Positions 19,338 to 26,924 of a stretch of 64,000 bases of DNA are shown here, one piece after another. This DNA is from Gammaproteobacteria bacterium (GTDB lineage: Bacteria; Pseudomonadota; Gammaproteobacteria; CBDDKY01): assembly GCA_965230455.1 (NCBI GenBank), contig CBDDKY010000003.1, forward strand, positions 430,948 through 494,947. Reading direction: 5' to 3'. The first letter of the stretch is position 1. Every line of letters begins with the position of its first letter. The translations under genes and the position numbers were made by a program. The notes beneath the pieces are model-generated. The model ran no database searches and was not told the origin of the DNA. It worked only from the letters and a program-made list of their open reading frames with translations.

Positions 19338-19578
19338 ATTGAAAGGGTAAGCATTCCCGCTGGGAATTACTGCTAAAGGAACAATCTTATTGAATTATGT
19401 CCCTATAAATGCTAAAAGAAGATTGCAAAGCCAAATGAACCTGAAACTTGACACTTTACAGACCCTGCAGCTTTTGCCATAATTAGAGGGGTAAATGAGA
19501 AAATACCCAGGAAAAATACAATGATAAAGTCTTTTAGACACAAAGGGTTAGAAGAATTTTACTTAAAAGGGAAAGTTA

Positions 19579-21070
19579 AACTCGACTATCAAGTTTTTGA
19601 AATTTTCATCACGCATCTAGCATTTGAAGTGCTCCTATATCAGCACCACGCATATGTTTTACGGAACTTTTAAGTTGAAAAAGCTGAGAAATTTTATCCG
19701 TATATTTTTTAAACATAGCCTGTGGGTCTTCACTTGTGACAATTTCCTCTATAAAAGCAGTCAACGACTCCATCATGACTTTCTCTCGTAGCGATCCAAC
19801 CGTAGCTGCTAGACCTTTGTTTTTATGCAAGTCCGTTTGATCCTGATGAAAATGGAGCGCATGGTCACTCAAGAGGCTGATTAACAATCCGTGCTCTGAG
19901 CCATCAACACCTCTTTGCATAGCCAGCTGGTTCCATCCTTCATAGGATTTCCAGTCTTGTATAAAAACCTCCACAAGCCAACGGAGCGAATAGGCTTTTA
20001 TAATGTCAACGTCAAGCCAAGTTGCATCATTGGCAACTAGATAGCGATAATCTTCTTCACCTTCATATTTTAATGCAATAACGCGCAACCTTTTATTATG
20101 TGCCTTTACCTTAAATTTAGCAGCGCGATAAGTTATTTTCTTTTTATTAAAACGCAGTGTGATTTCTTCAGTTTTACCCTGGTAGTTTTCAAAAAACTTT
20201 TGTACCTGAATAAAGCGACCATTAACATTAATCAGTTGAGTTTTTTTAATCTGACTTAATACCTGGGCTTGTCCAGTAGCAGCGACAGCACCATCAAAAA
20301 ATTCTTTGTTGCCATAAAAAGTATCTCCAATTACAGCTTTGATTTTTAAGTCACTAAAATTAGACGTAAAGTCACTAAGTGCCTCTATTGCCAATGATAT
20401 TTTAGTTGGGTAATTTGGATTGCGCCCCGGCATTTTTGGCCGGTATTTTTTTTGTATACCCTTCTTTCTTAGTCGTTTATCTTCTTTACGCCATGCTGAA
20501 ATATCTGGGTCTGGTTCATAAAATCTAAAACCAACAGGAATCGTTAACGTATCACTGACCAATAGTAAAAAAATAATGTTTTGGCCACTAAAAAAACCAG
20601 CATGCTTTTTGTCACGTATTTTATGCACCTTTGCAATTTCTGTTGTGTTTTTAGAGCGCTCACTATCTGTGTCATCAATCACAAGCACGCCTGATTTAAT
20701 GCCATATCGTTCTATTAATTTAATAACGCTGGCTTTTAACAATAACTCCCACGCAATTCTTGCTTTTTTAAACATCCAACACATGGCTGCTGCACTATAT
20801 TTTCCGCAACTAAATCGCTCAAATCGAGCCCAGCATAATGAATTAGTAATGATTAAGCCCAATATGACAAAGGATAACCAGTAACACTGTAGCTTGCTCA
20901 ATTTCTGTTCTGGAGAATGCTGCTTGATAGCATCATTGAGTAATTCTACATAATCTTTTATGAATGGTAATCCTTCGCCTATAATCATCCCGTGTCGCAC
21001 CCTGATATAAATTTGTGCGGAAAATAATACAGAATTCAGCCTACAGCGTCAAAAACTTGATAGTCGAGTT
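19579..21070 (-). mobile_element. IS4-family insertion sequence (about 1.49 kb) with 20-bp terminal inverted repeats AACTCGACTATCAAGTTTTT
   Basis: The inverted repeats sit at 19579-19598 and 21051-21070 and flank a single transposase ORF. Confidence 0.8.
19609..21000 (-). CDS. IS4-family DDE transposase
   Basis: 463 aa. The C-terminal YSLRWLVEVFIQDWK fits the Y(2)R(3)E(6)K signature of IS4 transposases. Confidence 0.75.
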   Translation of the reverse strand: MRHGMIIGEGLPFIKDYVELLNDAIKQHSPEQKLSKLQCYWLSFVILGLIITNSLCWARFERFSCGKYSAAAMCWMFKKARIAWELLLKASVIKLIERYGIKSGVLVIDDTDSERSKNTTEIAKVHKIRDKKHAGFFSGQNIIFLLLVSDTLTIPVGFRFYEPDPDISAWRKEDKRLRKKGIQKKYRPKMPGRNPNYPTKISLAIEALSDFTSNFSDLKIKAVIGDTFYGNKEFFDGAVAATGQAQVLSQIKKTQLINVNGRFIQVQKFFENYQGKTEEITLRFNKKKITYRAAKFKVKAHNKRLRVIALKYEGEEDYRYLVANDATWLDVDIIKAYSLRWLVEVFIQDWKSYEGWNQLAMQRGVDGSEHGLLISLLSDHALHFHQDQTDLHKNKGLAATVGSLREKVMMESLTAFIEEIVTSEDPQAMFKKYTDKISQLFQLKSSVKHMRGADIGALQMLDA

Positions 21071-21277
21071 AAAAAAATCAAACACGAATATGCTAAAAAG
21101 CTACGACAAATATTAACTATCCTCAATGCAGCAACTGTCATTGAGGATATTCAAAGTGTTAAGCCTCTACGCTGCCATGCCCTAACGGGCAATCGTAAAA
21201 AAGAGCATGCCGTGTGGGTTAATAAAAATTGGCGCGTTACATTTATTTTTCAAGATGGTAAATTAAGGAGATAGAGT

Positions 21278-21568
21278 ATGATGATGCACACCCCCCCCCA
21301 TGTTGGAGAAATACTATGGGACATGTATTTAGAGCCTTTAGAGGTATCTATAACCGATGCGGCTAAACATCTGGGTATTACTCGCCAAGCACTATCGCGC
21401 TTAGTGAATCAGCAGTCAGGGATTAGCGCAGAAATGGCTATTCGATTAGCTAAAGCCTTTGAAACCTCTCCTGATTACTGGATGAATATGCAAGCACAGT
21501 ATGATTTATGGAAAGCCCATAAATTTTCCAAAGACATTAACGTTAAGCCTTTTGATAAAGCTGCTTAA
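21278..21568 (+). CDS. higA: HigA-type HTH antitoxin (partner of the disrupted higB-2)
   Basis: 96 aa. The sequence LGITRQALSRLVNQQSGISAEMAIRLAKAF is a paralog of the antitoxin at 16096. Confidence 0.75.
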   Translation: MMMHTPPHVGEILWDMYLEPLEVSITDAAKHLGITRQALSRLVNQQSGISAEMAIRLAKAFETSPDYWMNMQAQYDLWKAHKFSKDINVKPFDKAA

Positions 21569-21764
21569 GCATTGTCGCGTGGGGATTTAATCTAAAATCA
21601 GAAGGACTGCGACAGGATGTCTGTGGCAGTCATTGCTTATTTCCCTTTTTAGTTTCCTTATCTAAATCAATCTGTTACACCAAAAAGATGCGATTTACTG
21701 CTGATTTTAGGTTAAATCGCTGTCCGCGCGGATTGATTCCGCGCAGGGTAAGCCCGTCTAAAAA

Positions 21765-22935
21765 AAGCATTGCCTTTCAATGGCTTACGTGCCACCTTAC
21801 TCGGATGTGCTTGTGCGTTCATCATTCCTTGTGAAGGCAAACCATCTTGAGTAATAAACTAACGGGTACACCATAACAGAAGCATTGCCTTTCACTGGCT
21901 TACGTGCTCTCTTACTCGTCCTTGCGAGCGGCAGCGCGGCAATCCAGGGTGGTAGGCTGACTTATCCTATTTTTTTAATAAATGACAAATGGGTATGCCT
22001 TCTCTTGAACAAGGCAAGGCGCTATGTGTGCAGAGTCCATAGCTTCGTGGTTTAAACTTTCCTAGGATTTAATTTGGATTGCCGCGCTGTCGCTCGCAAC
22101 GACGACTAAGGTGGTGCGTAACAAGTTGATGTAGAATGATTTTTTTAGGGTGTGCTTGTGCGTTCATCATTCAGCAGACGCACCTTTACCACAAAAAATG
22201 AACGGATGACGCAGGCTGCTCGCAACGACGAATAAGAGGGGTTGTAAGCTACTGAGAGAGTGTGTGAATTTTTTCGGATGTGCTTGGGCGTTCATCATTT
22301 CTTGTGAAAGCAAACCGTACTGAGTAATAAACTAACGGGTACACCATAACAGAAGCATTGCCTTTCAATGACTTACGTGCTCTCTTACTCGTCCTTGCGA
22401 GCGGCAGCGCGGCAATCCAGGGTGGCGGGCTGACGTGTCGCTGTTTTTTTGATGCGTGACGTATGGGTATGCCTTCTCTTGAACAAGGCAAGGCGCTATG
22501 TGTGCAGAGTCCATAGCTTCGTGGTTTAAACTTTCCTAGGATTTAATTTGGATTGCCGCGCTGCCGCTCGCAACGACGACTAAGGTGGTGCGTAACAAGT
22601 TGATGTAGAATGATTTTTTTAGCGTGTGCTTGGACGTTCATCATTCAGCAGACGTACCTTTACCACAAAAAATGAACGGATGACGCAGGCTGCTCGCAAC
22701 GACGAATAAGAGGGGTTGTAAGCTACTGAGAGAGTGTGTGAATTTTTTCGGATGTGCTTGGGCGTTCATCATTTCTTGTGAAAGCAAACCGTACTGAGTA
22801 ATAAACTAACGGGTACACCATAACAGAAGCATTGCCTTTCAATGGCTTACGTGCTCTCTTACTCGTCCTTGCGAGCGGCAGCGCGGCAATCCAGGGTGGT
22901 AGGTTGACTTGTTCTATTTTTTCAGTGAACTAGAA
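21765..22935. repeat. Tandem repeat array, about 474-bp unit, about 2.5 copies, with internal hairpin-forming inverted sub-repeats (CTTGCGAGCGGCAGCGCGGCAATCC / GGATTGCCGCGCTGCCGCTCGCAA)
   Basis: The period was measured from recurrent AGAAGCATTGCCTTTCA at 21878, 22351 and 22825. The sequence is non-coding and the ORFs called inside it are spurious. Confidence 0.8.
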
Positions 22936-22990: not shown

Positions 22991-23331
22991 GTGATGAAAG
23001 GACATACTAACGTTCAAGTTATTAAGCAGAGCAATAAGCCTGCCTTTGTTGTCTTGCCCTACCAGGACTGGCTGGAAATAACAAAGGAAATGTCAAATGA
23101 AGCTGACTATATCCCTCACGAGGTTGTCGGGATCCAGCTTGAAGATTCTTGTAGTTTAATTGCTGCATGGCGGAAATACCGCAAATTAACTCAATCGGAA
23201 CTTGGAAAAAAATTGGCGTTAGCCAGCCTGCAATGGCACAGATTGAAAGCAAAGACAGCTCTCCAAAACCTCAAACGTTGAGGAAGCTCGCCTCTGCTCT
23301 GAGTGTCAAAATAGAACAACTAATTGACTAG
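22991..23331 (+). pseudogene. Antitoxin-like HTH protein (Phd-like N-terminus + XRE HTH), frameshifted at an A7 run
   Basis: The ORF ends at 23281. The +1 frame continues as GVSQPAMAQIESKDSSPKPQTLRKLASALSVKIEQLID, a canonical HTH. An A8 instead of the A7 at 23206-23212 would restore one frame. Confidence 0.55.
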
Positions 23332-24992: not shown

Positions 24993-25288
24993 ATGGAGAA
25001 AAGCACACCACATACAAAGCTTATAGCTGTTAAAGCCCTGCTTGAGGAAGGCAAGGTGCGTACAACGCGAACGGCTTTGGTGGGTCAGCAGCGTTGGGGA
25101 TGAACGTCGATGACATGCTTGAATGCGTCATGGCTCTGACTATGGAAGACTTTTATAAAAGCATGACGACTTATGCCGATCATACTCAATGGCAAGATGT
25201 TTATAAGCCTCAAACTGCATACGGAGAAATTTATTTAAAATTGATGGTAGACAACGATGTACTAATTGTCTCTTTCAAGGAGTTGTAA
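24993..25288 (+). pseudogene. mqsR: MqsR-family toxin, frameshifted (or sequencing error)
   Basis: MEKSTPHTKLIAVKALLEEGKVRTTRTALVGQQRWG* is followed in the +1 frame by SAALGMNVDDMLECVMALTMEDFYKSMTTYADHTQWQDVYKP...VLIVSFKEL. Together they reconstitute full-length MqsR. One base is missing near 25065-25080. Confidence 0.7.
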
Positions 25289-25289
25289 T

Positions 25290-25736
25290 ATGAAATGTCC
25301 TAACTGTTCTAATTCACAATTAATATATGATACAAGGGATATACCTTATACATACAAAGGTGAATCAACCACTATCCCGAAGGTTACTGGGCATTTTTGT
25401 TCGTCCTGTGATGAAATTATTCTTGATGTCGAAGAGTCGAAGTGTCTTAATCAATTAATGCAGGCCTTTAACCGGGAAGTCAACCAAGCCAGCATTAATC
25501 CGCAATTTATTGCTGATGTCAGAAAAAAATTATCACTTAACCAGAAACAAGCGGCAGAAATGTTTGGCGGCGGTGTTAATGCTTTTTCACGCTATGAAAA
25601 TGGTCAGACCAAACCACCACTAGCACTGGTAATCCTGTTAAAACTTCTCAACCAAAAACCTGAGTTGTTACACGATATTGATTCACTCCTAGTAAAAAAT
25701 GCAAAACACCACAGAAATAAGCATCGTAGGTACTAA
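25290..25736 (+). CDS. mqsA: MqsA antitoxin (zinc-ribbon N-terminus + HTH C-terminus)
   Basis: MKCPNCSNSQLIYDTRDIPYTYKGE...FCSSCDEI... is followed by LSLNQKQAAEMFGGGVNAFSRYENGQTKP, the MqsA architecture. The ORF-track start at 25266 is probably spurious. Confidence 0.8.
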   Translation: MKCPNCSNSQLIYDTRDIPYTYKGESTTIPKVTGHFCSSCDEIILDVEESKCLNQLMQAFNREVNQASINPQFIADVRKKLSLNQKQAAEMFGGGVNAFSRYENGQTKPPLALVILLKLLNQKPELLHDIDSLLVKNAKHHRNKHRRY

Positions 25737-25994: not shown

Positions 25995-26650
25995 AGGGAA
26001 CTGCAACTTGTTACGCACCACCTTAGTCGTCGTTGCGAGCGGCAGCGCGGCAATCCAAATTAAATCCTAGGAAAGTTTTAACCACGAAGCTGTGCATTTT
26101 GAATACATAACGCCCCACCTTGTTCAAGAAAGGACATACCCATTTGTAACTCATTAAAAAAATAGAACAAGTCAGCCTACCACCCTGGATTGCCGCGCTG
26201 CCGCTCGCAAAGACGAGTAAGAGGGGCTGCAAGCTACTGAGAGAGAGTGTATTTTTTCGGGCGTACCCGTTAGTTTATTACTCAATACGGTTTGCTTTCA
26301 CAAGGAATGATGAACGCTCAAGCACACGCTAAAAAAACCATTCTACATCAACTTGTTACGCACCACCTTAGTCGTCGTTGCGAGCGGCAGCGAAGCAATC
26401 CAAATTAAATCCTAGGAAAGTTTTAACCACGAAGCTGTGCATTCTGAATACATAACGCCCTACCTTGTTCAAGAAAGGACATACTTGTTTCTAGTTCACT
26501 GAAAAAATAGAATAAGTCAGTCTACCGCCCTGGATTGCTTCGCTGCCGCTCGCAAAGACGAGTAAGAGGGGCTGCAAGCTACTGAGAGAGAGTGTATTTT
26601 TTCGGGCGTACCCGTTAGTTTATTACTCAATACTGTTTGCTTTCACAAAA
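25995..26650. repeat. Second array (about 2 units, about 345-bp period) of the same repeat family as 21765-22935, in inverted orientation
   Basis: It is the reverse complement of units from the first array, for example GGACATACTTGTTTCTAGTTCACTGAAAAAATAGAA versus TTCTATTTTTTCAGTGAACTAGAAACAGGTATGCC. Confidence 0.75.
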
Positions 26651-26924
26651 AAGATGGAAAAAAATCCTTTATCTTCAGCGAATTAGTCAGCCTCGCGACG
26701 ATTCCAACGGCGGAATTTAGCATAATCAAAAACGATGATTCTTTTATGGGGTCGATGAGACGCTTACAACGCGAGTGCTTCATAAGGAAAAATACAGTCA
26801 ATGTCTATATCTTTGATCAAAACAAGATCAGGCTTGAGTGGTGACGGCATGCATGGCAGGAAGACTTAATGCGTATGAGAAGTGGGGCTGCGATGTGCTC
26901 GCAGCCCTAGGAAGTTCCAATAAA

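Follow-up and report, generated by a model that had tools for sequence, protein, structure and literature searches.

An insertion sequence and a 39-bp deletion in the toxin gene of a chromosomal higBA module from a gammaproteobacterium

Results and discussion

We analysed a 64,000-nucleotide (nt) stretch of a gammaproteobacterial genome (contig CBDDKY010000003.1, positions 430,948 to 494,947; this whole stretch is called the window, and all coordinates below are counted from its first letter), in which a higBA toxin-antitoxin (TA) locus carries an insertion sequence (IS) within its toxin gene. We conclude with high confidence that this locus is a type II module of the chromosome in which, as in Proteus vulgaris Rts1 HigB/HigA, the toxin gene precedes the helix-turn-helix (HTH) antitoxin gene, and that two independent lesions have made the toxin gene a pseudogene. 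In the first, a 1488-bp IS with a DDE transposase would have entered higB at codon 19/20 and duplicated the target TTAAA; in the second, an in-frame deletion of 39 bp between short direct repeats would have removed 13 codons, including those for the C-terminal Asp-Tyr-His that HigB would need for cleaving ribosome-bound mRNA. Once the toxin was dead, higA would no longer be required for survival, and 1.5 kb of IS with a terminator-like hairpin would now lie between the operon promoter and the antitoxin gene. Most likely higA is an antitoxin gene that decay has yet to reach; it is not an established functional orphan.

The interrupted toxin gene

The toxin reading frame is present on both sides of the IS (Table 1). 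The 5' fragment matches residues 1-20 of 99-amino-acid (aa) HigB homologues in the protein alignment and also aligns at the DNA level with three uninterrupted loci; as it stands, it runs into the IS and forms a chimeric open reading frame (ORF) of 50 aa at 19521-19673. After the right terminal repeat the HigB frame reads KIKHEYAKKL...WRVTFIFQDGKLRR, ending at the stop codon TAG 21272-21274, and the first in-frame start codon that this 3' fragment could use comes no earlier than codon ~66. With 1488 bp of IS between codons 20 and 21, no uninterrupted translatable ORF is left. The initial annotation of this stretch, made from the sequence alone, had placed 20 HigB-like codons left of the IS and a resuming toxin frame after the right repeat, and both can be read there; its description of the intruder as an intact element also appears to hold, with a minus-strand transposase ORF of 459/463 aa and perfect inverted repeats.

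Removal of the IS together with one TTAAA (1493 bp in total) yields an in-frame ORF of 86 codons. The restored junction ...GGGAAAGTTAAAAAAATCAAACAC... is gapless against three uninterrupted higBA loci (L081, L082 and L083) in the DNA alignment and against the 99-aa homologues, at 65-76% identity, in the protein alignment. The homologue search gave 104 HigB hits, and the protein alignment took in 11 homologues from outside the window and the window paralogue HigB-1. In a Pfam search the restored product matched PF05015 (HigB-like_toxin, of the RelE/ParE superfamily) at 61.3 bits (cut-off 27), and it is 41% identical to HigB-1 over its N-terminal 82 residues. The two halves had been reported to join into a HigB-like sequence, which they do, continuously, once the IS and one TTAAA are taken out, but the peptides as originally written carry an extra Lys because TTAAA is duplicated. 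Excising 19579-21070 in silico, the check that had been proposed, leaves 262 nt and hence a frameshift.

Table 1. Features of the interrupted higBA locus, in window coordinates
Feature	Position	Strand	Basis or remark
Promoter-like site of higBA, TTTACA-17-CATAAT, TG-extended	19455-19483	+	10/12 matches
higB 5' fragment, codons 1-20, MIKSFRHKGLEEFYLKGKVK	19521-19580	+	ATG at 19521; HigB-like codons
Left TTAAA target-site duplication	19576-19580	.	read from sequence
Insertion sequence, 1488 bp, apparently intact	19581-21068	transposase on -	ends shared with relatives
Terminal inverted repeat distal to transposase start, CTCGACTATCAAGTTTTTGA	19581-19600	.	perfect 20-nt match to other end
Transposase gene, 459 aa from ATG 20988 (463 aa from GTG 21000)	19609-20988 (GTG form to 21000)	-	ORF list
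Terminator-like hairpin and T-run inside IS, CCGGCATTTTTGGCCGG TATTTTTTTT	20427-20453	+	pattern match
Promoter-like site of transposase, TTGACG-17-TATTAT	21024-21052	-	10/12 matches; -35 partly in inverted repeat
Terminal inverted repeat proximal to transposase start	21049-21068	.	perfect 20-nt match
Right TTAAA target-site duplication	21069-21073	.	removal with IS restores frame
higB 3' fragment, codons 21-86 of restored gene and TAG	21074-21274	+	frame checked by hand
Deletion junction, CAAGATGGT	21251-21259	+	39-bp in-frame deletion, 13 codons gone
Shine-Dalgarno AAGGAG for higA, 7 nt before ATG	21265-21270	+	(T)AGGAG/AAGAG in homologous loci
higA (HigA-2), 96 aa, full length	21278-21568	+	TIGR02607

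Loss of the C-terminal segment of HigB

The restored toxin is shorter than its relatives. It has 86 aa against 99 aa in most of the closest homologues, and it spans only positions 1-82 of the 91 in PF05015, where HigB-1 spans 2-91. All full-length proteins among the 104 hits measure 92-120 aa, none being as short as 86 aa; the sole shorter hit is a 74-aa protein (P0048) on a 695-bp contig, with 73% of the query covered. In the protein alignment the difference is a gap of 13 residues, the homologues reading ...FIFEDG DVYLTNYEDYHDG KxRR where the window reads ...FIFQDG KLRR. Every close homologue has these 13 residues, and restored HigB likewise lacks the final ~11 residues of the paralogue. At the DNA level we found a clean, in-frame gap of 39 nt against each of the three reference loci. 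Because another frame spells IKEIEYDDAH over the start of higA, a frameshift concealed near the end of higB was also considered; it was rejected since the gap is clean and in frame and the tail GKLRR matches DGKLRR of the homologues.

The missing codons encode (E)DGDVYLTNYEDY(H) in the homologues, which comprises the last beta-strand and the catalytic D-Y-H, and the Y, D and H are nearly invariant in the gap columns. The alignment of P. vulgaris HigB (PDB 4mct and others) with an intact homologue, P0001, runs over the whole length, and in it the deleted block corresponds to the C-terminal ...YILNYEDYH of the P. vulgaris protein; the segment YLTNYEDYH, which holds the Asp90/Tyr91/His92 triad, is lost from the C-terminus of restored HigB. 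According to Schureck et al. (PMC5027501), D90, Y91 and H92 are critical for the activity of P. vulgaris HigB. That toxin is intact and ends in NYEDYH, whereas the window higB is split and lacks the 13 residues bearing D90/Y91/H92; the subfamily to which the window protein belongs also has a 6-residue C-terminal extension (DGKxRR) that P. vulgaris HigB lacks. From the loss of the segment carrying Asp-Tyr-His, we infer that HigB would very likely lack activity even if no IS were present.

The gene had been described as cleanly bisected, with halves that align end to end with the paralogue, a description at odds with the 39-bp deletion and the truncated profile match. That the IS is the only lesion, and that its precise excision would give a functional full-length HigB like the paralogue at 15785-16099, is accordingly very improbable: the restored ORF is continuous and its N-terminal 82 residues resemble both the paralogue and the closest homologues, but 13 codons, among them those for the nearly invariant Y, D and H, are gone relative to every close homologue and the paralogue, residues critical in the P. 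vulgaris protein are lost with them, and the gap in the DNA alignment contradicts a single lesion.

In relatives the gap is bordered by the direct repeats GA(A/T)GATGGT and CATGATGGT, and the deletion falls exactly between two GATGGT direct repeats. Because of these flanking repeats, we propose slippage or illegitimate recombination between them as the likely cause. It is equally improbable that HigB occurs naturally in this subfamily in a functional form with a short C-terminus, no deletion having taken place: the change is in frame and the subfamily tail GKLRR is kept (compare DGKLRR in P0004), but no full-length homologue is shorter than 92 aa, Y-x-D-Y-H is kept in 11/11 aligned homologues from outside the window and HigB-1 keeps Y-x-D-S-H, the position between GATGGT repeats is a typical signature of slippage, and a core beta-strand of the RelE fold is lost.

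The antitoxin gene and its transcription

The earlier claim that an intact higA-like HTH gene is retained downstream of the IS is borne out. HigA-2 matches TIGR02607 at 115.2 bits (cut-off 47.7) over profile positions 1-80 of 81, and it is collinear, with no indels, with the HigA proteins of the three intact loci (96, 95 and 96 aa; 68-72% identity). Between the intact loci themselves, HigA identity is 80-82% in two of the three pairs and 72% in the third, with similar distances for HigB; identity of HigA-2 to the paralogous HigA-1 is 47%. The gap between the higB stop and the higA start is 3 nt (AGT), not the 4 nt first reported, and L081, L082 and L083 share this layout. A run of nine C at 21291-21299, in higA codons 5-8 (HTPPH), is a potential hotspot of slippage or sequencing error; it causes no frameshift in higA, because its length equals that of the corresponding region in the homologues.

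Retention here means an intact ORF, whose function is predicted from sequence. In a consensus scan, the best plus-strand promoter-like site in 19300-21700 lies 38 nt before the higB ATG, and none was found on the plus strand in 20525-21277. We also considered an outward promoter for higA at the end of the IS and rejected it: the scan gave none, and inspection of 20900-21277 by eye showed weak hexamers only. The promoter-like site of the transposase points away from higA. The GC hairpin within the IS could halt read-through from the higBA promoter ahead of higA. Because the IS parts higA from the operon promoter, its expression is unproven.

An alternative is that higA has been kept by selection as a working orphan antitoxin, expressed by read-through or from an unrecognised promoter. 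We regard this as possible but doubtful, and the same tentative standing applies to the roles that could be offered for it: transcription factor, anti-addiction module, or neutraliser of HigB-1 (15821-16099). The full-length ORF and its good Shine-Dalgarno sequence are consistent with selection, as is the intact paralogous higBA module 5 kb upstream; orphan antitoxins are abundant, for example in Escherichia coli, and the literature offers several roles of this kind for them (PMC10790755). Against this stand the lack of any promoter-like site from the IS interior to higA and the terminator-like hairpin on the path of read-through. At 47% identity between HigA-2 and HigA-1, cross-neutralisation is doubtful, and protection by HigA-2 against HigB-1 is possible but unsupported. 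The divergence of HigA-2 from the intact loci, set against the 80-82% of two intact pairs, fits relaxed constraint, albeit as weak evidence, and the perfect ends of the IS suggest that there has been too little time for decay.

We favour the reading of higA as an antitoxin gene that has yet to decay, and in this the case is an ordinary one, a known form of decay of chromosomal TA modules in which the toxin has been hit twice and the antitoxin ORF is whole. Orphan antitoxins and other chromosomal modules in which the toxin decays first follow the same widespread pattern, with the toxin inactivated and the antitoxin ORF kept (PMC10790755); the present locus does not differ from them in principle, though here two lesions fall in one toxin gene. 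It provides another example of toxin-first decay, in a region with a frameshifted mqsR and several IS remnants, and higB is better annotated as a two-lesion pseudogene.

Boundaries of the insertion sequence

The 20-nt core of the inverted repeat occurs only at the two IS ends in the 64-kb window, where 0 sites are expected by chance, and the window holds one copy of the IS. Read outward, the complementarity goes further: AACTCGACTATCAAGTTTTTGA, starting at 19579, pairs with 21049-21070 over 22 nt without a mismatch. The initial annotation had taken a 20-bp repeat, AACTCGACTATCAAGTTTTT, at 19579-19598 and 21051-21070 as the IS ends, and 19579-21070 as exact boundaries. The complementarity is real and indeed spans 22 nt, but the first two bases belong to the duplication, and the boundaries were set 2 bp too wide on each side of the true IS, 19581-21068. 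That repeat (AACTCGAC...) takes in two bases from each copy of the target duplication, whose T...A ends look like a continuation of the inverted repeat.

These boundaries agree with those of related elements. In a collection holding one representative genome per bacterial or archaeal species, we found relatives of the transposase at 114 loci, the best of them 70% identical, with dozens of copies in metagenome-assembled genomes of Endozoicomonas, Sansalvadorimonas and Parashewanella; further copies occur in Legionellaceae and Coxiellaceae. The conserved termini of these relatives read CTCGA(T/C)...(A/G)TCGAG. Perfect 5-bp direct repeats flank 43 of 60 related copies and take the form T-N-N-N-A in all but one of these (42/43); when the ends were moved outward by 5 bp as a control, 0/60 had a repeat. 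The nearest retrievable relatives, L001, L084 and L085 (70%, 85% and 74% aa identity to the window transposase), share CTCGAC...(G/A)TCGAG ends and lengths of 1485-1490 bp, and the target duplications are TTTTA in L001 and TTAAA in L085. A blastn search of the IS against plasmids gave no match. Because the inverted repeats and duplication are perfect, the transposase is full-length and near-identical copies occur on other contigs, the IS looks mobile and active and its insertion looks recent.

Several points weigh against this account of the locus. The promoter-like and terminator-like sites are consensus matches whose count in the region is no higher than in shuffled sequence, and higA may have weak or non-sigma-70 promoters. 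The loss of toxicity is inferred by analogy with P. vulgaris HigB, a distant relative. The proposed boundaries are drawn from relatives 44-85% identical. Finally, a model with a 3-bp duplication would also fit the sequence of this copy: the IS would end ACTCGAC...GTCGAGT (19580-21069), the duplication would be TAA, with a T|NNN|A target preference, and the restored higB would be the same as under the 5-bp model. Since A and T stand beside CTCGA and TCGAG in nearly all copies, most copies cannot separate the two models. We nevertheless consider the 3-bp model unlikely: in one related copy, L022, the duplication is TGTAT on both sides, and a fifth base T in both repeats is predicted by the 5-bp model only; in addition, 5-bp repeats flanked by A and T have been described for the related ISH3 group (PMC2266710).

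On the preferred 5-bp model, the T-N3-A duplication rule is new for a clade that is poorly curated and of which this IS is a new member. Together with the CTCGA termini, the T-N-N-N-A rule allows other copies of the clade to be delimited exactly, and the present IS can be annotated as 19581-21068 with a TTAAA duplication.

The transposase and its family

The 459-aa transposase is identical to a public protein (P0111); 3 public contigs encode the identical transposase, and an 854-kb contig carries a variant that matches it at 458/459 residues. Its catalytic DDE comprises D105 or D106 as the first D (the alignment leaves both), D222 and E340, and the motif Y333-(2)-R336-(3)-E340-(6)-K347 is complete (YSLRWLVEVFIQDWK). 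Across 18 diverse relatives, D105, D106, D222, R336, E340 and K347 never vary, and Y is found in the majority. A search for the clade found 2048 proteins at E<=1e-10 among 8000 candidates scored, with hosts that include Legionellales-like bacteria, Endozoicomonadaceae and Parashewanella.

The IS had been assigned to the IS4 family, an assignment that family models and the duplication both speak against. The window transposase scores best, and still far below cut-off, with the NCBIfam IS701 models NF033540 (68.4 bits, cut-off 150) and NF049999 (57.1, cut-off 170), followed by IS4_4 NF049925 (49.9, cut-off 250), IS4_1 NF033592 (39.1, cut-off 115) and a third IS4 model (18.6, cut-off 160). Pfam gave DDE_Tnp_1 at 20.2 bits (cut-off 23), a borderline DDE_Tnp_2/ISC1217 at 19.6 (cut-off 20.2) and DDE_5 at 17.6 (cut-off 27). 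The IS701 models match each of the 18 relatives and give their best E-values (best 4.8e-25), with the IS4 models next; the bit scores, which place the protein below the NCBIfam cut-offs for IS701, are those of the window protein only. The RefSeq/PGAP label of two plasmid copies, 44-45% identical, is simply "transposase".

Family definitions are given by De Palmenaer et al. 2008 (PMC2266710): the IS4 subgroups have YREK and duplications of 7-13 bp; in IS701 the Tyr is mostly absent and duplications are 4 bp; ISH3 is archaeal, with Y-(2)-R-(3)-E-(3)-R, CRGT ends and 5-bp duplications flanked by A and T; and IS1634 has duplications of 5-6 bp. Like IS4 sensu stricto (IS10, IS50, IS231 and ISPepr1), the window IS has a DDE and a complete Y-(2)-R-(3)-E-(6)-K, and it shares the 5'-CT termini of the IS10, IS50 and ISPepr1 subgroups, but its 5-bp duplication lies outside the IS4 range and its IS4 scores are below the cut-offs. 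It resembles IS701 (ISfinder) in its best-scoring models, in size (1.4-1.55 kb) and in having a short duplication, yet differs in the 5 bp of that duplication, against 4 bp, and in the complete YREK, where IS701 mostly lacks the Tyr. With ISH3, which includes ISC1217, it has in common the 5-bp A/T-flanked duplication and the borderline DDE_Tnp_2 score, whereas ISH3 is confined to archaea and has CRGT ends and E-(3)-R, and the window IS has bacterial hosts, CTCGA ends and E-(6)-K.

By these features the window IS joins an IS4 motif to a duplication like that of ISH3 and lies outside the definitions of IS4, IS701, ISH3 and IS1634 alike. "IS4-family" is acceptable solely in the loosest, superfamily sense, and the label should not rest on the YREK motif alone. 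The IS belongs to a widespread clade related to IS701 and IS4 that bears no family name in the sources searched, ISfinder being outside them. One possibility, less likely than not, is that this is an uncurated bacterial group that would merit its own family or subgroup between IS4 and the IS701/ISH3 "emerging families", to which ISfinder may already have given a name.

Genomic context and parallel cases

The window is chromosomal, encoding GlyA, PtsP and other housekeeping proteins; GlyA is ~70% identical to proteins of Legionella and other gammaproteobacteria, and the host is a divergent gammaproteobacterium, possibly Legionellales-like. Between 15 and 27 kb, TA modules and the debris of mobile elements abound. 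One of these is mqsRA (24993-25736), 4 kb downstream, where mqsR is frameshifted and mqsA (25266/25290-25736) is intact (PF15731, 177.5 bits). The frame that encodes the N-terminal 36 aa of MqsR (MEKSTPHTK...) ends at ~25103, and a different frame, at 25094-25288, encodes the C-terminal 64 aa; conceptual repair gives a PF15723 match of 114.8 bits over positions 1-95 of 95. A 1-nt deletion near a GGG run is the likely cause, and a sequencing error is also possible.

A second parallel lies outside the window. On an unrelated 13.3-kb metagenomic contig (Logan SRR32818403), the relative L085 (1044-3184) contains a 74%-identical IS of 1489 bp with CTCGAC termini, which splits a PIN-domain vapC/fitB-like toxin gene beside an intact FitA-like antitoxin gene, again with the duplication TTAAA; the restored PIN ORF has 139 aa and matches PF01850 over positions 1-117 of 120. 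We considered a preference of the IS clade for toxin genes, but 44 reconstructed empty sites lay in other transposases, assorted genes and intergenic DNA, with no enrichment. Because this survey shows no general preference for toxin genes, such parallels most likely reflect the AT-rich T-N3-A target and the harmlessness of losing a toxin gene.

The paralogous module higBA-1 is apparently intact at 15821-16401. Its toxin gene had been placed at 15785-16099; the locus is right, but the start is probably ATG 15821 (MIKTWQHKGL) and not TTG 15785. HigB-1 (15821-16099) ends ...DYLDSH, with Ser at the place of Tyr91, the residue that P. vulgaris HigB and the 11 other aligned full-length homologues carry and that is reported as critical for cleavage. 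The module is flanked by a truncated IS110-family transposase at 15082-15486 (PF01548 positions 42-148 of 155) and by a 43-aa fragment at 16477-16608 that resembles the C-terminus of an integrase-core transposase and has no Pfam hit.

A tandem repeat of 474 bp (2.4 copies, 94% matches, 21801-22922) starts ~230 bp after higA, and another of 345 bp (1.9 copies, 94% matches, 26004-26648) follows mqsA. Within the first, a 45-nt motif recurs, TAA.A.AAGCATTGCCTTTCAATGGCTTACGTGC...CTTACTCG, which the second partly shares; it occurs at 21759, 21874, 22347, 22821 and 26330 and has no Rfam match. The repeats after higA suggested an integron cassette array as context, an idea that found no support; Rfam and tRNA scans of the window were empty. 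An 87-nt repeat (85% identity) occurs at 15662-15748, directly upstream of higB-1, and 11 kb away at 26639-26725, after the 345-bp array; it may be a mobile-element end or a shared regulatory region. Between the modules, a 96-aa ORF at 22991-23281 (MMKGHTNVQVIKQSNKPAFVVLPYQDWLEI...) has a Phd/antitoxin-like N-terminus by eye and no Pfam hit, and may be a TA remnant.

Elsewhere in the window, we detected an IS21-family-like element at 56855-59196, with an IstA-like transposase of 521 aa (rve and Mu-transposase C-terminal domain) and an IstB ATPase of 251 aa (PF01695, 220 bits). A 760-aa protein encoded on the minus strand at 12403-14685 carries a C-terminal OTU cysteine-protease domain (PF02338, 44 bits). 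It resembles a eukaryote-like deubiquitinase effector, which suggests that the host may have a host-associated, intracellular, Legionellales-like lifestyle.

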